NCBI RefSeq assembly: GCF_037042905.1
Contig: NC_087251.1
Coordinates: 62,001 to 126,000, forward strand
DNA length: 64,000 nucleotides
Source: Lytechinus pictus
Lineage: Eukaryota
Reading direction: 5' to 3'
Shown piece by piece: positions 2,003 to 60,927 of this stretch. The position numbers and the translations under genes are program-made. The notes under the pieces were generated by a model. It had not been told where the DNA came from and searched no databases. It was given only the letters and a program-made list of their open reading frames with translations. Numbering within the stretch: position 1 is the first letter of the stretch; every line of letters begins with the position of its first letter.

Positions 2003-2400
2003 CTACACAAGACCTGTCCAGTGGAGGGTACCAGATCTGACTTCGGGGTTAAAGGACTCCAGATCTCCGGCATTGCACGACTCTGGTAGGAGGGGGCAGA
2101 CCAAAAGGTGTTGCATCGTCTGATCCTCCCCCACTCTCGCAAGCAGTTTTGTAGCCCCATTTCTGCATAAAGAATTTGCACCGTCCTGTTCCAGACCGTA
2201 GGCGATTAAGACATGAATAGCCAGGTTGGCCATTCCTCACTTGAACCCGATGGAGTGACTCGCTAGGTCCATAGGGAATGTTGTGTTGGTTGAGGTGGTT
2301 GGATCATAAGTTGACCCTTTGATTGTGAGCAGAGCCATCGAGGGGTTCAGTCGAGTGAAGGAAACTACGTCTTGATTTGAGGGCCAAACTTGAAGAAGGG
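2003..2400 (-). mobile_element. Decayed 3' end of a non-LTR retrotransposon ORF2 with a C-terminal zinc knuckle (I/Ingi/RTE-X-like; clade uncertain)
   Basis: Frameshifted minus-strand peptides join as LKSRRSFLHSTEPL...LNRLRSGTGRCKFFMQKWGYKTACE...EDQTMQHLLVCPLLPESC, a typical post-RT CCHC region. Confidence 0.7.
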
Positions 2401-2479
2401 GCGTTCACGTGCTGTCAGGAATCCATCCTGCGAATCCTTCTTCCACACTACACAATTTCTACTACTTTGAATCGGTTAA

Positions 2480-35805: not shown

Positions 35806-38038
35806 TTAGTTGTGCTTGCAATAAATTGTCTGTTTCCAAAGTTAGTATCTAGAAAGAGTGCAGTACGCTTAAAAGGGCCTTATGGTATACCGGCAACTCT
35901 TACTCGTAATCTAAATAGAAAATGATGGCAGTAAAGGGTAAAATGCAGGGTTCCTTACCTAGTCTAGATCTGGACGTTAGTAGTTATTTATTTGAAGAAA
36001 TGTAATATAACAGCAGCGCTGACTTTGAAAAAAAAAACAAGAATAATAATTTTTTCACCAATATCAAATGACAATCTCAGATCAGTTTCATTTGATTTGA
36101 TACAGTATTTTGAAAATAATGAACAAAACATTCAATCCTATCGGGGTTAATTCTGAATTCAAGTAAAATATACTTTGACCTTGAACCAGCAATCTTTATA
36201 CGCATCAAACTAACGCTACCACCGGTACCAAGTTCTAACTTCTGCTATACAGAAATAAATTGAGGAAAAAAATAATGATAATAAAATAATAAAAATGTTA
36301 ATAATAATTATATCATTACCATTAATAATGATTCTCAATTTCTTATCCTCTGCAACAAGTTCAGAATATCCAATAGGCATCATTCCATGAACAATGTATA
36401 CCTTTTATACCCTTGTGTACCCTTGGTTTTATACCCTTGCTTGTGTAAAACATTTGCAGTGTACTGCCGTCACATGAACCATTCAGCCACTAATACAGTA
36501 AATCAACTTTTACAAGGAATTCATTACAATTCTGACTTATCTGCATGACTGTTTGGCATAACATTTGGCTTGAAATTTACTGACAAGGCACAATCAAGCC
36601 TCATCTACCAGGGTACTCCTTTCAATTCCTGTGTTTAAATATCAGAAAACTGTTACCTTTTGAAAATTTCCAACATTTTTTTAAAAGTGCCGGAAATTAC
36701 CACAAAATTCCCCGGAAATTTGCAACCCTGTAGTCATCCCACACAGTATTAACACCCTGTCTTTTCCTTTTTATTCCCTTCAGTAAAAGGAAGTGAAATG
36801 ACCGGTTCTAGAACAACTACCCCCTGGACAATCACCCCCCGGACAACTACCCCCGGACAATTACCCCCCGAGGACAATTACCCCCTGGACAATTACCCGC
36901 CGAGGACAACTACCCCCGGACAACTACCCCCCGGACAACTACCCCCCGGACAACTACCCCCGGAAAATTACCCCCCGAGGACAATTACCCCCCGGACAAT
37001 AACCCCCCGGACAACCTCCCCCGGACAACTACCCCCCGGACAATTACCCCCTGGACAATTACCCCCCGGACAACTACCCCCCGCACAATTACCCTCCCGG
37101 ACAACTACCCCCCGGACAATTACCCCCCGGACAATTACCCCCCGCACAATTACTCCCTGGACAATTACCCCCGAGGACAATCATTTTATTCTCGAGTATC
37201 TTGCAATCAAACGATCACCGCTGTAAGAAGCCGTAAATAGTCAGCTTCATCTGCAAATCTTTACGAAATCCAAACTCGTACGAACGCATCATTCGTACGA
37301 TCATTATTTGTGGGCCGCCGGAAGATGTGATTGAAGCTTTTACATTCCAATGTAAATATCGCGCAGCTCAATAACCGCTACTTCCCGTGCGTTCAGGCGT
37401 GCTAAAATAGAGGGGGCGTGGAGCATATTTGAGTAGTTCTAGAGCTATAATCAGTTATCTTATCGTGTGTGCATGATGTGGTATGTAGGTTTCAAATACG
37501 ATTAGTCAAGGTGACCGTGATACATTGGCGGATCAAGGGGGGGCCGTGGCCCCCCCCCCCCCCCTTATTGGCGGAGCCACAAAATGAAAAAAAAGGGAAA
37601 GAAAGAGCAAAAAAATAAAAAAGGAAGGGGAAAGAACGGAGGAAAAAAGAAGAAGAAAATAGGAGGGAGACGAGTGAATAAAATAAGGTCAGGGGAATAG
37701 CCTGTTCGATGAGATACATAGCTTGCTTAATATGCTGATATGTAGCTTGAAATAAGTATTGAAGTCAATATACAAAACATATTTCATCTCGGAAATCGAA
37801 CTTTCATTATTTTGTGTGATTTACAAATTCATTTTTTTTAATTGCTCTGTAAAAATGTCAGTTTTATGGTCTGAATATTAAAATTTTGTGCTCTCGCTGA
37901 GCGCTCGCAAATTTTGATTTATCAGGTACCTTTTATTTCCTCGTATTCCATAACATTTTCAAAATATCCCTTTTCAGGTCTGATTGTAAAAACGTATCAG
38001 CTAGCGCTGCACACTCGCATTTTGATTGGCGAGTTATA

Positions 38039-38851: not shown

Positions 38852-39534
38852 TATAATGTCTCAATATTAATTATACAACAAACTATACTTAAAATCCCCT
38901 TTTCATGACGGTGCATAAAAAAATTAGGCTCGCAATTTGCGCTCGCTTTAATGGTTTAAATACATTAACTGATGCGTCCTATTTATAATTACAAAAGTGC
39001 TTGAAATGTCAAGTTTTCAGGCCATAATATCATCAGATTTCGCGCCCTCATTAGGCATAGATATTAATTTAAGAATTAAATTGCCCTTTTGTTTCATCTT
39101 GCGCTTAGCAAAAGGAATAGGAAGACAGTCATTGACATGTCCTAAGGATGTCCCGGTCCTATGTCAAAACTTTTTTTTTTCAGATCGGAATATCAAATAG
39201 TTTATGCTCGCTTTGCGCTCACTTTGATTTTCATGATCAAAGATTATTTAGAATGCCTAGATTCTAGGTCTAAATATGAAACACGCGCGCGTATATTTGT
39301 ACAGATACTCAACTTGTTCTCTTAATTTAAATCATCCAGTTTCAGACCACAATATCAAAAATTTTCTGCTCGCGCTTTGTGCTCGCATTATTAATGTACG
39401 AAGATCCCCTATTACTCATTCTTTTCATAATTTACAAAACGTTAATAGAGTGCCCCGTTTTTAGGTCTAAATCTCGATTTTTTTTCCGCTCGCGCTTCGC
39501 GCTCGCATCAAATTATCAATTGTTTAGTTATATA

Positions 39535-39845
39535 TGTAAACAAATTTTCGGCATCACTCCTATGTGTTTAAGATCGCATGCCCGATCTTCAATGAAAATC
39601 ATAAGTCAGAAAAAATTGGAACCAGTGGGATTCGAACCTGCCATCTACTGCTTTCTGGGCAGCGACTTAACCACCAGGCCATTCTGGTTCACGGCTATCA
39701 CGATGAACTAGAATTCAAATACCCTCAATCCTCTTCTGTTATGATTTTCATTAAAGATCGAGCATGCGATCTTAAACACATAGGAGTAATGCCGAAAATT
39801 AATTTACAAATTATGTTTTCCTCCTATTTAAGCCTCTTTATTTAC
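39535..39845 (-). mobile_element. 311-bp tRNA-bearing hairpin retro-insert with 14-bp TSD
   Basis: TGTTTAGTTATATA is duplicated at 39521-39534 and 39846-39859. 70-bp inverted arms (39535-39604 and 39739-39808) enclose a tRNA-like module. The insert is absent from the paralogous site near 13625. Confidence 0.8.
39618..39690 (-). tRNA. Degenerate tRNA-like sequence (pseudo-tRNA; loop CCAGAAA)
   Basis: Acceptor stem GAACCAG/CTGGTTC, A box TGGCCTGGTGG, B box GGTTCGAATCC, anticodon stem GCTGC/GCAGT, and a T6 run 3 nt downstream. The D and T stems are imperfect. Confidence 0.55.
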
Positions 39846-40624
39846 TGTTTAGTTATATAGCTATCCTGTTCACGATTACAAAAATTGATTAAATTTGTCC
39901 ATTCTTTACGTAGAAATGTCAAAAATTTTCAGCTCGCGCTTCACGCTCGCATTATTTGATTGTTGAAATATGTAAAGTCTTCATGGGTAAGTGCAAGCAG
40001 TCATTTCATGAATGTTCAATTGTTTTATGAAAACTTGAAAATAAAAGGAATTATGAGGGACGCTTTACATATTATCTGATGCATATGTGAGTAACCAAAT
40101 TGGAGGTTTGGAGGCGCAAGCTCTGAAGTAAAAAAAAAAGGAAAAAGAAAAAAAATGAGAGAAAAAGAGAGAGAGGGAAAGAGAGAAAGGGAAATATAAA
40201 AGAGAAAAGGAAAGAGAAAGTTATTAAGATAAGGTGAAGTAGAAAATATTTCGAAAACCTGTGTCACCGGCCAAGACTTACAATGGATCCCACTTGATTC
40301 TAACATCTATGCCGGAGAGGAGGGGGAGGGGTAATTGTCCGGGGGTAGTTGTCCGGGGGTAATTGTCCGGGGGGTAATTGTCCGGGGGGGTAATTGTCAG
40401 GGGGGTAGTTGTCCGGGGGTAATTGTCCGGGGTAATTGTCCGGGGGGTAGTTGTCCGGGGGTAATTGTCCTCGGGGGGTAGTTGTCCTCAGGGGGTAATT
40501 GTCCGGGGGGTAGTTGTCCGGGGGGTAATTGTCCTCGGGGGGTAATTGTCCGGGGGTAGTTTCCGGGGGGTGATTGTCCAGGGGGTAGTTGTTCTGATAC
40601 GGAAATGGCCATGTGTGTATACTG

Positions 40625-42121
40625 TCACCTGGCTCAGATGATATTTCTCCTAGAATTGTAAAAGATTGTATTCATGTTATTGCAGATCCACTTTGTGACA
40701 TATTCAATAAATCATTGTTTCAAGGGGTAGTTCCCAACAAAATGAAAATAGCAAAAGTGGTTCCAGTATACAAAAAGAATGATCGAAAATGCATTGAGAA
40801 TTATAGACCCATTGCACTGTTGCCAATATTCTCAAAGATTCTAGAGAAAATAGTTTAGAAAAGATTGAATGACTTTTTGAACACCTTTGAAATTTTGATA
40901 CCCCAGCAATTTGGATTCCGTAAAAATTGTTCAACTAGCATGGGTGTTCTAAATTTGGTAAATACAATAGTTACTTCAATTGATGATGGGAAGTATTGCC
41001 TTGGAATATTTTTAGACTTGTCAAAAGCATTTGACACAATTGACCACGATATACTCCTAAGCAAACTTGAATATTACGGCGTTCGAGGTATAGCCTTAAG
41101 TTGGTTTAGAAGTTACCTAGAAAATAGACTACAATTTGTGTATATTAATGGCGCCAAATCACAATTAAGTAATGTAAACTATGGTGTACCACAGGGATCT
41201 GTCCTTGGCCCATTGTTGTTTTTGATTTACATTAATGATATCATCAATTCGTCTCAATTATTTACCTATTCTCTTTTTGCTGACGATACATGTTTATTAT
41301 ATTCTCACAAGAATATTCACACTCTTATGCAGTCAGTTAATTCTGAAATTTGTAAACTCTATGCATGGTTTTTTAGTAACAAACTGTTATTAAATACAGG
41401 TAAAACACAATGTGTATTTTTTAGATCCAGAGGGAGGGTAATCCCTGATGATGTTCATCACTTAATTATTGGCAATGAACAGATCAATTGCAGTCAACAT
41501 GTGCAATTTCTAGGTGTTACGGTTGATGAATATGTATCTTGGAAAAACCACCTTGATAATGTATGTACTAAAGTTTCTCGTTGTGTTGGAGTGATATCCA
41601 AACTTCGTTATTTCCTCCCCCAGCAGACCCTTGTTACTTTATATAATGCTATTGTCATGCCCCATTTGACGTACTGTAATGTTGCTTGGGGGCACACATA
41701 TAAGACTCATATACATAAATTGCAAGTTTTTCAAAGAAAAATTGTTAGATACATAACATATTCGGATTATAGGTCGCCAAGCACTCCTTTGTTTTTACAA
41801 CTGCAAATTTTACCTTTTGATGAATTGGTATCTCTTAACTGTGTCACATTTATGTTTAAGTGTCAATCACGCCAGAATGCATTTTTGTCTCATGTGTTTG
41901 TGGAAAATTCTTCCATCCATCATTATCATACTCGTCAAAGAAACCTTCTCCATCAGCCATTAGCCAGAACCCAAACTGCTTTGAATTCATTTAGAATAGT
42001 TTGTGTTAAAGAATGGAATAAGTTACCTCATGACGTTAGAAATAGCTTGGCTCTGTCCCGATTTAAAACATTGTGTAAAAAGCATCTCTTCGATAGATTG
42101 CGGTCGGATGTGAATGTATAA
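40625..42121 (+). pseudogene. Reverse transcriptase part of ORF2, with one premature TAG at 40856-40858
   Basis: ORFs 40613-40858 and 40865-42121 are in the same frame. Motifs: NYRPIALLPIFSKILEK, QFGFR, DLSKAFDTIDH, GVPQGSVLGPLLFLIYIND, FADD. Confidence 0.93.
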
Positions 42122-51160: not shown

Positions 51161-53072
51161 GACTGTGTTCTTTTTTCTTTATTGAAGTAAATCTGATTTT
51201 TCTTTATTCATACTCCATTTCGATTAATACATAGAACAATCAGGTTTACCGACAATAAGGTTACATTTAAAGCACTTACAGTGCAAACGGAGGCTTGCGT
51301 ATAATTTTTCATGTAAATTGCATTTCAGCCCAAAACAAAACATGCGTGTATTCTGCATGGTAATAATAATAAAAATAATATTAAAAAAAAAAGTGATCTG
51401 TGATTCATTTGTAAAGTTTTGCCACATCAAGATAATTACTTTGCTATTCGTAGGCTGTGCAGATCAGATATATTTGCACCTTCTTTAGGATTTAGGCCCT
51501 ATAGGTAACCCGCCTTAGGGCCTATAATGCCTTCTTTATAATCATAAACCAACTTTTTATTGTTTTATACGTCCTGGGCAAACGCAGGAACACAATATAC
51601 ATTTATATTCCGTTGATAATTCACGTAAATAACATTTAAAAAAAAGCCCAATCTCACTTTTGAATTTTTTGTTGGCCTTGTATGACATACTGTCAACCCA
51701 TTTCATTGAGAATTCAGGAATCACCTGGACATAAATACGTAAATGTTGTTCTCATTTTAAAACGACACATGCCTTCAAACCATTCAACTTGTGTAGTGGC
51801 TTTCCCCATACTGGAGATAGTCATTTCAAATTGGGATTGATATTGTCTATTATGTTGGATGTTCTTTCATCAATACATGCTCAGTGCCTTTCGGGTCTTC
51901 TTTCTCATTTGCATTTCTCGCCTAAATTTCCTATCCTAACCAGGCAAACACTTCAACGAATTGTTTTCATCTTTTTTATTGATGCAAAAATTCTTTATTC
52001 TTCGCTTCACCTACGTTGCTTTGAATCAGTTTTGCCGACAATCAGGTTAAAGTCAAAGCATGTATGGGCCTATGCAAATGAGAATAATATTCTCATTTGC
52101 ATAGGCCCATACATATTATGTTTCCTATTTTCAAGATTCAATCAAAACAAGTATTTAAAATAAAACATGTCTTCTTTTTAGCTTGCATGTTCAGCATCCC
52201 AAGGTTTAGTCATTCAAATGATATCGTTTTACCATTGTTACACATTCTATATGCTATAATCATAATGACATATTTCATATATTTGCTTTATGTATGTCCA
52301 AATTTATGGTTTATGAACGCCACTGGAATGATGCTTGATAATAGGTCCATGATTCAAACTAGTTACGCGTTAGAAGCGCTGTTTGGAGCTTTGAGCGCTT
52401 TGTTCGGGTGTGTCGCTCTGGCAACAGTTGTTCCGACTTTTGAATAGTCTAAAAAAAAAACAATTTGTTTAAAGTTTGGTTAAATTGGTTTGAGCAATGG
52501 TTGTTGGAATGGCGGCCTGAGCGACGTGCTTGGGGTTTGAATGGCGTTTTTTTCTTTTTGTTTGCGGTGTACATATTTATCCTATCTACGGTATTTCCGG
52601 GTAATTGCCATACCGGCAATTGAACCCCTTATCTTTGAACAATAACATTGTCTAATTTATTGTGATGGAAAAAATACATGCAATTTTATTTGATCTATTG
52701 TTCGTTCAGTTTGCTGAGTGTACACAAAACCATGTGCAGCTGTACTATGTATATACATTCAATTCTTTTTCAAGGCAATGTTGCCCATTTTGTTGAGGGT
52801 AATAGAATCCCACGAACATTATGTTTTATCTTAACATAATTATTTGCAAACAGCTATTTTACCTTTTTTCCTCCTTCTCCCCCCCCCCCCAATTTTTTTT
52901 GTAGCAAATGTCACAAAATACAGGTTGCCACTAGCCTTGAGTATGTCAGACCGTCACGCGTGAACACACCCTTATACACTCAACGCAAAACACATGCACC
53001 CCTCCTAGCACCTTGCACGCACCGAGCACTCCCAATCGTACTGCAAACCAAAATGTACCTCATTTGGATGAC

Positions 53073-56015
53073 ATGTTTAATGATGAAGTATTTGCCCCCC
53101 AGAGCAAATATTACACTGCTAAAGAATTTATTTCAGCTTTTAATACTAAAAATCGAAACGATAAACCAAATCACTTTAGCTTAATGCACATAAACATTCG
53201 AAGCTTACAAAAGAACTTTGAAACTTTCAGTGAATTCTTAAATATATTGAATAAATTTCCATTCTCTATTATAGGTATGACCGAGACGTGGTTACACTCA
53301 ACAACCCCTCCCATATTCGAAATTGATAATTATACATTTAACCATATAGATCGTAAACAAGGTAAGGGAGGTGGGGTCGCTTTTTATATTCACAATGATA
53401 TGCATTATAAAATAAGGGACGATATTCAACTTGACGGGTTAGAAACTTTATTCATAGAAATTATCGATGATAAACATAAAAATAAAATAGTCGGTGTAAT
53501 ATATAGGCCACCAAACAGCGTTGTTGATATATTTCTAGATAGATTAGAATTATGTCTCGAAACTGTATCTCGTGAAAATAAGGACATCTACATCATGGGC
53601 GATTTTAATATAGATCTCTCAATACCTTATACTGCCCTCGGCCAACACATGATCACTTTGATGTCATCATTTTCTTTTAAACCTCTCATTGATAAACCTA
53701 CGAGGATAACAAATGCGACACATACAATTATTGACAATATTTTTACAAATGTATTTAATACCAATAATAATGGAATAATATATTATGATATCTCTGATCA
53801 TTTACCTATTTTCACGATATGTTCAAGCACCTATCGCTTACATAAACAATGCAACACAGAACACACTACTCGACGAAAAGAGACCAAGCGCAACATAGAT
53901 TCCCTAAAAACAGATCTGTTTACAGAAACATGGCAAGATGTTTATCAAGAGCAGGATGTTAACAATTCATATGAAATATTCATAAACAAACTTCTTCATT
54001 ATTACAACAAAAACGTACCTTTGACAAAAATAACTTCAAACAAAAAGAAGAATAAACAACCATGGATCACTCAAGGAATAATTAAATCTATATTTACTCG
54101 CAATAGATTGTATAAGATATCACTTAAATCACCTACAATAGAACATCAAAATAAATACAAAAAATATCGTAATAAATTAACATCTGTAATCCGTTTAGCA
54201 CGAAAATCTTACTTCTCAGACAAAATTGAAAACAATAAAGACAATAACAAAACTTTATGGCATACAATAAATGACATTCTAGGTAAGAAAAAAGATGATC
54301 GAGACAATGATGAATTTTTAGAAAATGGTGACCACATCAGAGACCCCAGTGTTATTGCAAACGCATTCAATTCATTTTTTACTAATGTTGGTCCAAACCT
54401 AGCTTCGAAAATTGTTACCAATGACCATGATTTTTCACAATATTTAGATAACCATAACGAACACTCCTTATTTTTCAACCCTACTAATATTCAGGAAATG
54501 TTAGAAATTGTTCGATCCTTAAAACCCAGCAAATCCAGTGGCCATGATGGGATAAGTGTATATCTACTTAAACAAATAATTTTTTTCCTGGCTTCTCCAC
54601 TTGTACATATTTTCAATCTGTCTCTCTCTCAAGGTGTTTTTCCTGAATCGCTAAAACTTGCCAAAATTATTCCAATATATAAAAAAGATGACCCATGTCG
54701 GATTGTAAACTACCGCCCTATTTCACTGTTACCAAGCATTTCCAAAATACTTGAAAAAATTGTTTACAATCGTTTATACTCATTTTTGGACACTAACAAA
54801 TTATTAATCCCCAATCAATATGGTTTCAGAAAAAACCATTCAACCGATTATGCAATTTTACAATTATATGATAAAATAACTGATTCACTTTCAAAAAAGG
54901 AGCACACTATTGGGGTTTTTATGGATTTATCGAAGGCGTTCGATACAATGGACCATCGCATATTACTGAGTAAACTAAAGACATATGGAATCAGAGGGAT
55001 CGTACTATCTTGGTTTAAAGATTATTTAGCTAATAGACGCCAATATGTTAATTTTAAATCCAAATCATCTAATATATGCCCCGTAATATGTGGAGTACCA
55101 CAGGGTTCAATCCTGGGACCTTTATTATTTTTAATATATATGAACGACATTGTGAACACATCACCCTTACTTACATATGTTTTATTCGCAGATGACACCA
55201 ACATATTTTATTCACACCACAACTTAAACATACTTGTTGCAACTCTCAATCAAGAATTAAAGAAATTATCAATATGGTTTAAATCAAACAAACTTTCACT
55301 TAACATAGATAAAACAAATTTCATGTACTTCAAACACATTAATTCTAAACATATATTTCGCGATAATATTTATATCAATGATATACCCATTAATGAAAAA
55401 CAAGAAACTAAATTTTTAGGTGTAGTGATCGATGCTAACATAACTTGGAGTAGTCACATTCGTAATATAAGCATGATGGCAGGAAGAGGCATAGGCATTT
55501 TGTATAAATTAAAATATTATATCTCTCAAAGATCGTTACTTATGCTCTATAACTCATTTATCTTATCGTATATATCTTATTGTAATATTGTATGGGGAAA
55601 TAGTAACAAAATCAAAATCGATTCAATATTGCGCCTTCAAAAGAAAGCACTTCGCATTTGTCATCACTCCCATTATCTCGCTCATACTGATCCTATATTT
55701 CATGATTTTAAAACATTGAAGATCTACGATATTCACACTTATCAAACTGCTATTTTTATGTACAAATTTTCCACCAACACTATACCAACACCCTTTCGAA
55801 ATATTTTTGTCTATAATAGAGACATTCATTCATACCCTACTCGACATTCATCTGACTTTCATTTAACAAACCCAAAACTAATAATTGCTCACAAAACAAT
55901 ACGGCATCACGGCCCGGATGTTTGGAACAACCTTCCGAATGATATCAAACAAGCTGCATCTCTTATATCATTTAAAGCTTCACTAAAGAGGTACCTTTTA
56001 TCTAAATACTTATAA
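53073..56015 (+). CDS. LINE ORF2p: apurinic-like endonuclease + reverse transcriptase (980 aa from the first ATG; frame open from 52941)
   Basis: Endonuclease motifs HINIRSL, ETWL, YRPP, GDFN, IDNIF and SDH. RT motifs NYRPISLL, QYGFR, DLSKAFDT, GVPQGSILGP and FADD. No stops. Confidence 0.97.
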   Translation: MFNDEVFAPQSKYYTAKEFISAFNTKNRNDKPNHFSLMHINIRSLQKNFETFSEFLNILNKFPFSIIGMTETWLHSTTPPIFEIDNYTFNHIDRKQGKGGGVAFYIHNDMHYKIRDDIQLDGLETLFIEIIDDKHKNKIVGVIYRPPNSVVDIFLDRLELCLETVSRENKDIYIMGDFNIDLSIPYTALGQHMITLMSSFSFKPLIDKPTRITNATHTIIDNIFTNVFNTNNNGIIYYDISDHLPIFTICSSTYRLHKQCNTEHTTRRKETKRNIDSLKTDLFTETWQDVYQEQDVNNSYEIFINKLLHYYNKNVPLTKITSNKKKNKQPWITQGIIKSIFTRNRLYKISLKSPTIEHQNKYKKYRNKLTSVIRLARKSYFSDKIENNKDNNKTLWHTINDILGKKKDDRDNDEFLENGDHIRDPSVIANAFNSFFTNVGPNLASKIVTNDHDFSQYLDNHNEHSLFFNPTNIQEMLEIVRSLKPSKSSGHDGISVYLLKQIIFFLASPLVHIFNLSLSQGVFPESLKLAKIIPIYKKDDPCRIVNYRPISLLPSISKILEKIVYNRLYSFLDTNKLLIPNQYGFRKNHSTDYAILQLYDKITDSLSKKEHTIGVFMDLSKAFDTMDHRILLSKLKTYGIRGIVLSWFKDYLANRRQYVNFKSKSSNICPVICGVPQGSILGPLLFLIYMNDIVNTSPLLTYVLFADDTNIFYSHHNLNILVATLNQELKKLSIWFKSNKLSLNIDKTNFMYFKHINSKHIFRDNIYINDIPINEKQETKFLGVVIDANITWSSHIRNISMMAGRGIGILYKLKYYISQRSLLMLYNSFILSYISYCNIVWGNSNKIKIDSILRLQKKALRICHHSHYLAHTDPIFHDFKTLKIYDIHTYQTAIFMYKFSTNTIPTPFRNIFVYNRDIHSYPTRHSSDFHLTNPKLIIAHKTIRHHGPDVWNNLPNDIKQAASLISFKASLKRYLLSKYL

Positions 56016-56969: not shown

Positions 56970-57060
<91 letters not shown>
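56931..57060. repeat. (TA)n/(TG)n microsatellite containing a 22-bp relic of the adjacent element
   Basis: Simple repeats. TGTTCTCTTCATCCATTTC at 56946 matches the sequence at ~57633. Confidence 0.9.
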
Positions 57061-57061
<1 letters not shown>

Positions 57062-57208
57062 AAAGTTATACATGTACAACAGCTATTGGCAACTCTTTTT
57101 ATTTAAATATTGTAAAGAAATGGATGAAGAGAACAAAGGTAGGCGTAGCTTAAATCAAGGTTCCCCAGAGCTATCTACCCTTTGGAAAAATTGGTGATGC
57201 CGAAAAAA

Positions 57209-57280
57209 TGTCTCTGCCGGGAATCGAACCCGGGCCCCCAGCTTTGAACGCCGGTGCCTTAACCACTAGACCACAGAGAC
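57209..57280 (-). tRNA. tRNA-like gene with UCA anticodon (tRNA-Glu-like D and T arms; not tRNA-Sec architecture)
   Basis: GTCTCTG TG GTCT AGTGGTTA AGGC A CCGGC GTTCAAA GCTGG GGGC CCGGG TTCGATT CCCGG CAGAGAC A, then TTTTTT. All four stems pair. G32 is atypical. Confidence 0.8.
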
Positions 57281-57895
57281 GGGTTAGTGGCTAGGGCGAC
57301 CCCGATCCGTTTGACCGTCAGATAGACAAATTTTCGACACCATGCCAATTATAATTTCCTTTGTCGGGTGAAGGTGGGTTTTTAACAATGACAAGCCGCC
57401 ATGCCTCAGCTGGATCAAAGCTATTGCTTCGATACAGTACACGTATGGGCGAAGAAATACAAATGTGTAAAGTTATACATGTACAACAGCTATTGGCAAC
57501 TCTTTTTTATTTAAATATTGTAAAGAAATGGATGAAGAGAACAAAGGTAGGCAGAGACATTTTTTCGGCATCACCAATTTTTCCAAAGGGTAGATAGCTC
57601 TGGGGAACCTTGATTTAAGCTACGCCTACCTTTGTTCTCTTCATCCATTTCTTTACAATATTTAAATAAAAAAGAGTTGCCAATAGCTGTTGTACATGTA
57701 TAACTTTACACATTTGTATTTCTTCGCCCATACGTGTACTGTATCGAAGCAATAGCTTTGATCCAGCTGAGGCATGGCGGCTTGTCATTGTTAAAAACCC
57801 ACCTTCACCCGACAAAGGAAATTATAATTGGCATGGTGTCGAAAATCTGTCTATCTGACGGTCAAACGGATCGGGGTCGCCCTAGCCACTAACCC

Positions 57896-57966
57896 GTCTC
57901 TGTGGTCTAGTGGTTAAGGCACCGGCGTTCAAAGCTGGGGCCCGGGTTCGATTCCCGGCAGAGACA
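57896..57966 (+). tRNA. Second copy of the UCA-anticodon tRNA-like gene
   Basis: Same sequence with one G fewer in the variable region, followed by TTTTTT. Confidence 0.75.
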
Positions 57967-58031
57967 TTTTTTCGGCATCACCAATTTTTCCAAAGGGTAG
58001 ATAGCTCTGGGGAACCTTGATTTAAGCTACG

Positions 58032-58083
<52 letters not shown>

Positions 58084-58094
58084 CTGTATATATG

Positions 58095-58768
58095 TATTTG
58101 AGATCAAGAGTATGGGAGGGCTGTAGCAAGGTCAATTCCAGTATTCATCAAGCTTTCGGGCACATGCCCTTCATCAGGATCTAAACCTATATAAAATACA
58201 AAATAAATAGACCTACTAATAACAATGATAAATATAATACAATGCAATATATAACGGAGATAAGTAATTACAGTCCATAAGTAATAACCAATTATTCATA
58301 TAAGGTAATGGTGAGTCAATATGTAACGAAGTATAGAATATATAGTTACCGTAAGGTCCGTAAGTATAGTGTATTGTTGACAGTAAAGTTAAGTGTAAAG
58401 TGAGGTCAGGTGTGCGGGGATGAGTTCATTAGAGGGTGAAGAGGGTCGTTTATTGGTCGGCGTTTATACCACGTGGTCTTATTAATGTTTTGAGTTTGTG
58501 TATCCAATGAGATTCCCTTTTCATGATGGTGTCGTGTTTCTTGTTTTTTACTATTTCGATGGCAGTGATTTTAATGTTGTGTACTGTATGGCCGGGAAGT
58601 TTTGAAATGTATGGTGTATGGGAGGGTTTTGCTGTTGGGTTTGTTTTTGTTGTAATTGGTTACTTCTGATCTAGTGTTATTTAGTCGTGTGTATAGTGTT
58701 GTTTCAGTCTTTCCGACGTATTGCATGTTGCATTTAATGCATGTTAGGAGGTAGATGACCCATGAGGA
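58095..58768 (-). mobile_element. 5'-truncated Penelope-like element (GIY-YIG C-terminus + 3' region) between TA tracts
   Basis: VIYLLTCIKCNMQYVGKTETTLYTRLNN..HF, then after frameshifts LPGHTVHNIKITAIE..RESHWIHKLKTL..PRGINADQ* (stop at 58450-58452). The CxxC in the motif is Neptune-like. Confidence 0.88.
58147..58180 (-). ncRNA. Minimal type I hammerhead ribozyme in the PLE 3' region
   Basis: ATC-CTGATGA-A-GGGC-ATGT-GCCC-GAAA-GC-TT-GAT, with a palindromic AAGCTT stem III as in dimeric PLE hammerheads. Confidence 0.75.
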
Positions 58769-60927
58769 TATATATATATATATATATATATACACTGCAT
58801 ACAATTAGTGAGTGTGGGGTTTTTCGCAATAATGAATTGCAAACGTCTAGATCTAGACTATAGGTGGATGTCTGTATGACCTGATTCGCATCAATCTAGC
58901 AACACTGATCACCCATCCAGGGGCTCCATCAGGTCCACCATCCAACATGACAACTCCAATCTGTGTATGAGAGCCTTTCAACACGATTCCCGGATTAGAT
59001 ACTCTCAAATCAATCATTCTCAATTGGGATATAATCAGGGATATCTTCCCTGGTTCTATTCAAAGTTGTAAAGATCGTGTTTCTCCACCATGGCACCGTG
59101 AATGAATTTATCACGGTTTAATTAATGCGCGCCCATAACGACTCAGTAATATATTCAAATAATGAATTAAGATCCCTCTTCTGAGCTTATGGTAGCAAGT
59201 TACTCCATTAACCTGTTTAACATGAAAAATAAATTAACCGTTTTAAAGACTCTATGTTTCTTTTTCAGGTAAGAAAATGGGGAAGCATTTAAGTAGGCTG
59301 GAACAAATTTTATTTGAAAGGGATATTCACTTGAACTATATGAAAAAAATAAAACCCCAATTTTCCCTACCTCGATGTGATAATGCCCCTACTGCAAGTC
59401 TAGAAGACTAAGGCAAACGCACTTTAATGACACATATGCCTTACTTAACAGTGGAGATATGAGATTTTTAGGGGCCAGATATGGTATCGGACAAGAGAGC
59501 AAAGTGAGCGAGAGGAGAGATTTTATTTATTAAGAAAATAACGTCATATTTCACCCTTCGTTCTTTCCTCTATTTTTCCTTTTCTCTTTTTTTTCTTGGT
59601 AGTGAAAAATTTAGGGGGAAGTGCCCTGAAGAACCCCCCCCCCCCCTCATCTGTACGCCATTGCAACTTATTGCCCTACTTGTGGGGTTTGGGAGGGGTC
59701 CTATTTTTTTTTTTTTACAAAGTTGGGATACAGTGAATTTATTCGAATCATTGCAGGCCTATTGTACACACCATGATGATAGCTTTAATAGCATTAAAAC
59801 ATCAGCCCAAAATGACCTTTAACTAGACAAAATTGAATCTATTTCCTAATTTATCAATAATTATATGCTTTTCACACTGCATTTCCTTAATAGTCCGGCA
59901 GCCCAGGAGATTTATTCAAACGAAAGCCTGACAAGCAAATGACCCCATAGCTGGATGACATGGACCCTTAAGTTTATAAAAATGCATTGCTGCCGGGTTT
60001 CATCCGTGATCTTCCCGCCGAAATGACGTAATATATGACGTCACTACAAAATGGCCCTATTTCACAATTTTTTAGACATTCTACACATAGCATGAAGTCA
60101 AGGGAATATATCTCAACCAAACCATGTTTTTTTGTATGAAATTTTCAAAATATATTGTTCAAGTAGTGCAAAAGAAACATGCAAAATTTCACGAACAGAA
60201 ATTATTGTTTACATATGCAGATTATGTCATGAAATTTGCATATCATTAGTTTGGAAGATTTCTTGCTTCAAAAATTGTCGAAAATCGATTCAGAAATGTA
60301 TTTTCTTTCTTAGTGTACTTTCTTTGATATATTTCCTGTCAAGCATGATATCGTTCTTTTTATCTATATCTCTACTTTTAGAAAATATATGTCAGTAATT
60401 GAAAATGACATTATAGACTGTGATTTCAGCCCCCTTTTCAATATGGTGCGTACATAGAAATCGTGCGTTTTGGGCCTATTTTCACCATATAGCTGAGGTG
60501 TGCTTACGATATGCCTACGTTATGGATGTTTCCTGCATTTTGCATGATATTAAATCTTCCAAACAACATATTTTCATCTTCATTATGTCTCTGCTAATAA
60601 ATTAAGGATTTCAGCAAAGATTGATTGCCCACTGGGCAGTCTATAGGCTACGTTTTCAGCCTAGTTTTCAACAACGAACCTATACCATGTATGACTGCAT
60701 TATTGTAGTCGTGTCGGAAATGGAAGTTCCTGTGCACTATCATAATATATTTTTAATCAACGTTTTTGTATTGCCTGAAGTGTCTAGTTAATGAATCTTG
60801 ATGTTCCCTTTGCAAAATCGTGTCCCACGGGGTTCAAAATTGATATCTTTGGCGGCCCTCTTGGATTTTTAAAATGAAAATTCATTATTTTCATATTTTT
60901 TTGCACAGAGTGTGACAATGGGACAAT

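Follow-up and report, generated by a model that had tools for sequence, protein, structure and literature searches.

The 64,000-nucleotide stretch of Lytechinus pictus DNA analyzed here, which we call the window, carries at positions 39535-39845 an insert of 311 bp abutted on both sides by exact 14-bp repeats (39521..39534 and 39846..39859, plus strand). An empty copy of the host repeat (G000:C3:44358902-44359057) has the 14-mer once, the matches to the left and to the right flank having exactly 14 bp in common, so that the repeats represent a genuine target-site duplication (TSD). The insert length and TSD given in a first-pass annotation of this DNA thus agree with both the coordinates and the empty site. 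The host repeat covers 39401..40592 according to flank alignments of 87-93% identity. It is abundant, with about 2000 first-look candidates for its flanks in the genome, and it took the insertion to two further loci, L002 and L003 on C17. Two mutually inverted arrays of a 15-bp unit (36813-37181 and 40328-40592) flank the insert region and are possibly the ends of a larger foldback-type element. The window also contains a LINE-type open frame of 1024 aa with endonuclease and RT domains (52941-56015, plus strand), an RT fragment of 420 aa (40859-42121, plus strand) and a weak match to the HDV-like (CPEB3) ribozyme (2380-2441, plus strand), which at 25.6 bits and E 0.016 does not reach the gathering score.

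Alignment to the family unit, a monomer whose positions are written below with the prefix m, resolves the insert into two 5'-truncated copies of a repeat that we name F1. The sense copy (39535..39737, minus strand, m49-253) ends at a 3' site called A. The inverted copy (39734..39845, plus strand, m177-290) ends at a second 3' site, B; this copy provides the 70-bp arm and shares a few positions with the sense copy where the two meet. As the first-pass annotation had described, the arms (39535-39604 and 39739-39808) are mismatched at five of their 70 positions, namely 39541, 39542, 39555, 39582 and 39590, and four of the five mismatches are G-U pairs on the minus strand, which is the tRNA strand. 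End mapping over 35 loci identifies the segment between sites A and B as a PLE-type tail (PLE, Penelope-like element), present at one end only (39809..39845, plus strand). The putative RT starts are marked by TTTAC(A) at site A (39535..39540, minus strand) and TTTAC at site B (39841..39845, plus strand), a word limited to the end sites on the sense strands of F1 and of a second family, F2. The copy retains m49-72 of an antisense leader that spans m38-72 in the family (39714..39737, minus strand), the 5' part having been lost.

Between the arms lies a degenerate tRNA-derived module (39616..39690, minus strand). Rfam scores it at 21.7 bits on the related locus L020, where the gathering threshold is 29, and ARAGORN run on the window does not call it. 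The acceptor and anticodon stems are kept and the T-stem is broken; the anticodon loop reads GGA in the family and AGA in the window copy. Compared with the Pol III consensus, an A-box-like sequence (39671..39681, minus strand) shows one departure and a B-box-like sequence (39628..39638, minus strand) agrees. The module is followed by T6, resembling a Pol III terminator (39610..39615, minus strand), which is the sole run of at least five T on the F1 sense strand and precedes both 3' sites, with 75-115 nt between it and the RT starts. The tRNA-like module followed by T6 is thus present, as had been claimed, though weak.

A search of the 812-Mb assembly gave 148 F1 matches from the best 40 scored of 604 candidates, and an F1 17-mer has 409 exact matches in the genome. 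F1 is also found at 90-99% identity in contigs under a second organism label. The unit that emerges is not the hairpin: it is a 289-bp monomer devoid of any ORF and arranged in natural tandems, which occurs as fragments, tandems and inverted pairs. A 333-bp subfamily forms arrays of up to 13 units. Motif spacings of 333, 350-372 and 406 bp, considered as signs of extra families, turned out to be this subfamily and F2. One subfamily array (L092, G000:C1:28167200-28168800), flanked by a 13-bp TSD, has tail A-runs of about 12, 42 and 20 bases in successive units, differences due to slippage or assembly error. At the inverted end of the 13-unit array, about 140 bp of unrelated and partly palindromic filler separates the arms (L091:786-928).

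The ends were mapped at 35 loci. These represent 32 independent insertions, given that L001-L003 are a single insertion spread by the host repeat and L010 and L013 another. All 14 single-orientation insertions end at site A (about m249-258) or at site B (about m287-4), the two being about 35 nt apart, and their 5' ends are scattered. Inverted insertions, with their 3' ends outward, account for 18 of the 32 independent ones in a locus sample that the query had enriched for inverted copies. Both ends fall at a site in 15 of these 18, and one end is then at A and the other at B in 14 of 15; leaving out five loci picked for their likeness to the whole query, this A/B rule holds in 9 of 10 (one-sided p 0.011). 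At 20 of the 35 loci the TSD measures 11-14 bp, in varied target sequence; the remainder have one of 18 bp, one of 9 bp, three 7-mers that likely occur by chance, and none in 10. Arm length differs between loci, and 14 of the 32 independent insertions have no inverted arm. Where both arms could be scored for a subfamily allele at m199, they were identical (11/11 loci), which fits one source for the two arms of a locus. We also considered whether complementarity between leader and terminator guides the inversion junctions generally. By eye this applies to the window copy and about three look-alike loci, and the rule fails in the remaining F1 loci and in F2.

The first-pass annotation had attributed the arm asymmetry to pairing maintained at the RNA level, and had suggested looking in genomic copies for its fixation in the consensus. 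In the F1 family consensus the window arms are identical. The window alleles are rare elsewhere (2/64 copies at m198, 1/65 at m206, 4/71 at m233 and 1/72 at m247), and that at m206 is absent even from both duplicates of the window insertion. As the arms are two copies of one sequence, any transition in an arm gives a G-U pair on one strand, and four such changes falling on the same strand have a two-sided p of 0.125. Nine other inverted F1 loci together show 8 G-U and 7 A-C over 601 positions, or 8 and 5 once a duplicate is removed (p 0.58), six of the eight G-U coming from the single locus L009. This tally started from 22 loci, of which we dropped the window insertion with its two duplicates, eight loci with the whole module in both arms or in neither, and two without an inverted pair. 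A G-U bias of the arms is thus rejected as a family trait, and maintenance of the 70-bp pairing as RNA is not borne out. The asymmetry of the window arms is private decay, acquired later at the DNA level.

Three A>G changes are present in the tRNA-bearing arm both at L009 and at window positions 39555-39590, the pattern that ADAR editing of a hairpin would give. We rejected ADAR as the source of those in the window: the family as a whole shows no excess of such changes (65 A>G on 82 A against 67 T>C on 92 T), and one of the window changes is later than the DNA-level duplication.

A second repeat of comparable design lies further along the window. At 57057..58035 (no strand assigned), an inverted insertion of a 408-bp tRNA-bearing tandem unit, F2, occupies a (TA)n tract. 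Its tRNA module (57209-57280 and 57896-57966) is an intact cloverleaf with a TCA (UGA-reading) anticodon, scoring 60.9 bits. Like F1, F2 has a tandem unit (in arrays of about 21), a tRNA module with T6, an antisense leader, inverted copies and two 3' ends after TTTAC. It also follows the A/B rule: of 28 F2 loci examined, 15 are inverted and have each end at a site, and 13 of these have one A and one B end; two loci (L080 and L082) may be one insertion. The previous proposal that F1 and F2 are two families of one class is supported in so far as they have one design, with tandems, two 3' ends, inversions and a tRNA module with T6. F2 differs from F1 by its distinct and intact tRNA module, by a tail of about 53 nt, which is the distance between its two sites, by carrying a 13-mer common to the two families on the other strand, and by its microsatellite targets. 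F1 TSDs arise in varied sequence whereas F2 inserts in (TA)n/(CA)n, a contrast indicative of different partners. Close to F2, in its (TA)n neighbourhood, the window holds a 5'-truncated PLE 3' end with a frameshifted C-terminal GIY-YIG endonuclease (58100-58770, minus strand). A hammerhead-like motif that Rfam missed follows this remnant (58149-58177).

Both families have, directly before the tRNA, a leader that is a degraded antisense version of the 3' half of the tRNA together with T6. Alignment of the F1 leader (m38-72) with m152-187 gives 27 Watson-Crick pairs, 3 G-U and no A-C; in F2, m339-394 against m42-92 gives 40, 5 and none. None of 500 shuffles reaches the match score, in F1 or in F2. 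Pooled over the two families, this post hoc comparison yields 8 G-U to 0 A-C (p 0.004) in four of five strand-neutral scoring schemes and 10 to 1 in the fifth; under laxer scoring, which extends into noisy flanks, the ratio becomes 18 to 14 and is not significant. The strand-specific G-U pairs that had been described for the insert thus fail as a family trait of the 70-bp arms and reappear one level down, in the leader/tRNA helix of the monomer, with the reserve that the 8:0 count is post hoc. A natural F1 domain has a fold z of -6.9 on the tRNA (sense) strand versus -2.6 on the antisense strand, and the predicted fold buries the tRNA module in a rod. Recurrent F1 variants keep predicted pairs in 6 of 8 cases, as opposed to 18 of 57 for rare ones (p 0.025); the same test in F2 shows no effect (4/7 versus 27/67), and no two-sided compensatory change was seen in 57 pairs over 14 copies. 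Selection on the leader/tRNA pairing inside the monomer is therefore suggested rather than proven. RNA deamination, without any selection, would also push towards G-U.

The 13-mer itself, which reads GTRATGCCGAAAA on the F1 sense strand, was found in both window arms (39545..39557, minus strand, in the sense arm; 39786..39798, plus strand, in the inverted arm) and in the 57057-58035 unit, as announced by the first-pass annotation. It is enriched in the genome (3121 matches versus 6 for a reversed control), but only because it resides in the two repeats: the first 30 matches on C1 comprise 7 F1 and 23 F2 and nothing else. Its T-rich strand is antisense to the tRNA in 7/7 F1 loci and sense, directly after the tRNA, in 23/23 F2 loci. 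As the fixed 3' ends are tRNA-sense in both families, a reverse transcriptase would meet opposite strands of the 13-mer in F1 and in F2, which makes it a poor RT signal; such a role, as proposed earlier, is at best weakly supported. The earlier wording on a helix common to the two repeats is misleading on one point: the 13-mer closes the tRNA domain inside the F2 monomer, whereas the closing helix of F1 itself differs in sequence, the 13-mer helix being formed in the window only because this copy is an inverted duplication.

A shared 13-mer with one mismatch arises in 6% of shuffles. A second common word, an exact 14-mer (window 57347-57360 and 57816-57829; F1 m254-267), has no equal in 150 shuffles. 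It matches the 13-mer in order and relative orientation, F1 antisense corresponding to F2 sense, and a common origin of F1 and F2 with a strand flip is possible on this basis. The word TTTAC occurs exactly twice per sense monomer, at the two 3' sites, in F1 and in F2, and is absent from the antisense strands of both monomers. Any 5-mer common to all four end sites is obtained in 50 of 200,000 random placements, a figure to be read knowing that TTTAC was picked post hoc and varies at site A in subfamilies.

We then looked for a ribozyme. Even with one mismatch tolerated, no CTGANGA core followed by a stem II and GAAA was found on either strand of F1 or F2, and Rfam ribozyme models gave no match in either at E up to 10. 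The hammerhead negative rests on the motif scan, since Rfam also missed the motif at 58149-58177. Site A of F1 displays GAAA, a 6-bp hairpin and UA, and resembles a hammerhead 3' half with no core or stem II. Ordinary RNA-seq, from libraries that may lose small or circular RNA, showed no sign of an own transcript. Of about 12.9 million records, 798 and 1023 match, in both orientations; they reveal neither discrete starts nor discrete ends, and 65-70% of them run into unlike sequence. A scan for GIY-YIG gave 149 matches in the genome, 143 over the cut-off and 17 in frames of at least 750 aa, counted on the GIY-YIG match alone. As for an autonomous partner, none of 40 tail matches and none of 58 motif loci is closer than 10 kb to any of these 149 matches.

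Altogether, judging from sequence comparisons, F1 is probably a non-autonomous retroelement moved by a Penelope-like RT/GIY-YIG protein. In this mechanism, the PLE protein would nick both target strands 11-14 nt apart, and RT would be primed inside an RNA longer than the unit, at site A on one strand and at site B on the other, near TTTAC. Where both cDNAs survive, they would be joined tail-out and give a hairpin such as that of the window, whose junction lies in a word common to the leader and the terminator helix; the mismatches between the arms would correspond to DNA decay after insertion. Target-primed reverse transcription had been proposed from the long TSD, and it is supported in its PLE form by TSDs of 11-14 bp, fixed 3' ends, tandems and inverted copies. 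We infer, with good support, that a PLE protein carries it out on an RNA longer than the unit, starting at two internal sites, one for each target strand. Because T6 lies upstream of both RT starts, F1 templates need read-through. In the read-through RNA, the antisense leader would pair with the tRNA 3' half and U6 and could hide the tRNA fold and the U-tract of downstream units from tRNA processing.

The intact B box of the tRNA module, next to a broken T-stem, faintly suggests that the module is kept mainly as a Pol III-type promoter. Given PLE mobilisation, we find a promoter role just about plausible, a mere passenger a somewhat weaker possibility, and a processing signal rather unlikely. 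We tentatively suggest, and would not put it more strongly, that F1 and F2 could have been built separately and belong to one undescribed class, which would be to PLEs what SINEs are to LINEs and TRIMp3 to LTR elements. Such elements would combine a Pol III tRNA module, a terminator before two TTTAC RT starts, and a G-U-kept antisense leader masking the tRNA fold and the U-tract in read-through RNA, with no ribozyme needed. If this holds true, the A/B rule would be in vivo evidence for one PLE dimer priming both target strands from two sites of one template.

A first alternative is that the tRNA module and leader are the fossil of an old inverted tRNA/SINE insertion in a small PLE derivative, the templates being supplied by Pol II read-through and the G-U drift by RNA deamination or chance. 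We hold this to be unlikely, though of some weight. The leader is arranged like an inverted PLE arm, the RNA reads resemble host read-through, T6 cuts Pol III off from the RT starts and two-sided covariation is lacking. On the other hand, a fossil would hardly account for one layout in two families whose tRNA modules are dissimilar and whose remaining sequence is unrelated, for the intact B box, or for F1 recurrent variants that mostly keep the pairs.

One could also imagine a retrozyme without ribozyme, in which the tRNA module replaces the hammerhead, RNase P/Z cut the multimers, and the unit RNAs circularise and undergo rolling reverse transcription. Arrays of 13 units in F1 and about 21 in F2 would suit rolling copying, the F2 cloverleaf is intact at 60.9 bits, no hammerhead was found, and the unit size and tandem arrays recall non-LTR retrozymes (PMC7229834). 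Nevertheless, the broken T-stem of F1 and a predicted fold that hides the module in a rod fit badly with such processing, and in a biased sample of loci the 5' ends do not accumulate where the module begins, nor is there a step in read depth at that point. Moreover, PAc insertion in vitro did not need hammerhead cleavage (PMC11167929). We thus consider this reading improbable.

Very improbable, too, is either a DNA element (MITE or foldback) with TIRs or a LINE-dependent tRNA SINE with twin-priming inversions, even though the window copy resembles a TIR element and LINE-type RT frames are present in the window. A MITE or foldback would have fixed TIRs in all copies, whereas the F1 inverted arms are variable and optional, 14 of 32 independent insertions having none, and the ends are unequal by the tail. 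A tRNA SINE would agree with the A and B boxes, but the module is internal, copies continue into upstream units, and the 3' ends are two fixed non-A sites with no A or simple-repeat tail. Furthermore, twin priming on a single template would not duplicate one stretch in both arms, as is the case here. Finally, the model of the first-pass annotation, in which the whole 311-bp hairpin is what functions, the pairing of its arms is preserved in RNA and the 13-mer helix is the signal for an RT common to F2, is the least probable of all: it draws on the 4/4 transitions giving G-U on the tRNA strand in the window, on the 6:0 at L009 and on the two shared words (the 14-mer in the same relative orientation, 0/150 shuffles), and is contradicted by the p of 0.125 for the former, the 8:7 or 8:5 at other loci, the insertions without an inverted arm (14/32) and the varying arm lengths, the opposite polarity and 6% shuffle frequency of the 13-mer, and target preferences that point to different partners.

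No retroelement cycle is at present as poorly understood as that of PLEs. Short families of PLE type that encode no protein expose the minimal RNA signals. Since F1 and F2 are alike in layout only, TTTAC-type starts and a masked tRNA/terminator become candidate signals, and the one-A/one-B rule turns the known one-end tail into a countable prediction for the dimer model.

This brings us to the comparison with known systems. Among the marks of PLEs listed by Craig et al. (PMC8557442) are partial tandems, an inverted 5'-truncated copy and a 30-40-bp tail that is often at one end only. F1 displays four such structural marks, namely tandems, 5' truncation with fixed 3' ends, an inverted copy and a one-end tail. 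Working with PAc in vitro, Frangieh et al. (PMC11167929) place the tail between two internal RT starts and show cleavage and extension of both strands. MRC1 and non-autonomous Chlamys elements, as described in PMC8557442, share with F1 the lack of an ORF, head-to-tail multimers, 5' truncation, an inverted 5'-truncated copy and a 30-40-bp one-end tail, in a clade without canonical hammerhead; F1 is unlike them in its internal tRNA-derived module with T6 and antisense leader. Butterfly non-autonomous Penelope elements are reported with no mention of a tRNA link in the part of 10.1101/596502 considered.

A parallel can also be drawn with animal non-LTR retrozymes. These (PMC7229834; bioRxiv 10.64898/2026.07.22.740005) have 150-450-bp tandem units, low GC, TSDs above 4 bp and a proposed PLE dependence, as in F1. 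Both papers, together with PMC4209133, define them by a type I hammerhead in each unit, and none was found in F1 or F2. F1 is thus not a retrozyme by this definition, though its tandem unit and TSD fit. Retrozymes also yield plentiful linear and circular RNA of unit length; the F1 records from ordinary RNA-seq, where such RNA may be lost, showed read-through only. The SINE-like hammerhead repeats of Schistosoma mansoni, as reviewed in PMC6765202, have tandem units and an apparent Pol III promoter that depends on an upstream copy for propagation, as F1 may; they are hammerhead-released, whereas F1 has no hammerhead, a T6 right behind the module and PLE double ends. Where a tandem unit with its own promoter is concerned, these Pol III hammerhead repeats are the closest earlier case. 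The TRIMp3 elements Cassandra, Helenus and Ajax (PMC10886601) resemble F1 by a small-RNA-derived Pol III module in a repeated non-autonomous unit and by tandem arrays. They are LTR elements with PBS/PPT and short TSDs (4 bp for animal Helenus, 5 bp for Ajax). F1 does not show two LTRs with a 4-5-bp TSD; it has TSDs of 11-14 bp, 5' truncation and inversions, and we rejected this assignment.

No tRNA-bearing, hammerhead-less PLE derivative was found in the literature searched; Repbase, Dfam and supplements are beyond that scope and could hold F1. The PLE insertion marks of F1 are already known, and what appears new is the tRNA module with T6 and antisense leader in a non-autonomous PLE-type repeat. 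A PLE derivative that has a Pol III module and no ribozyme would occupy a place so far empty beside SINEs, which depend on LINEs, and TRIMp3, which depend on LTR elements.
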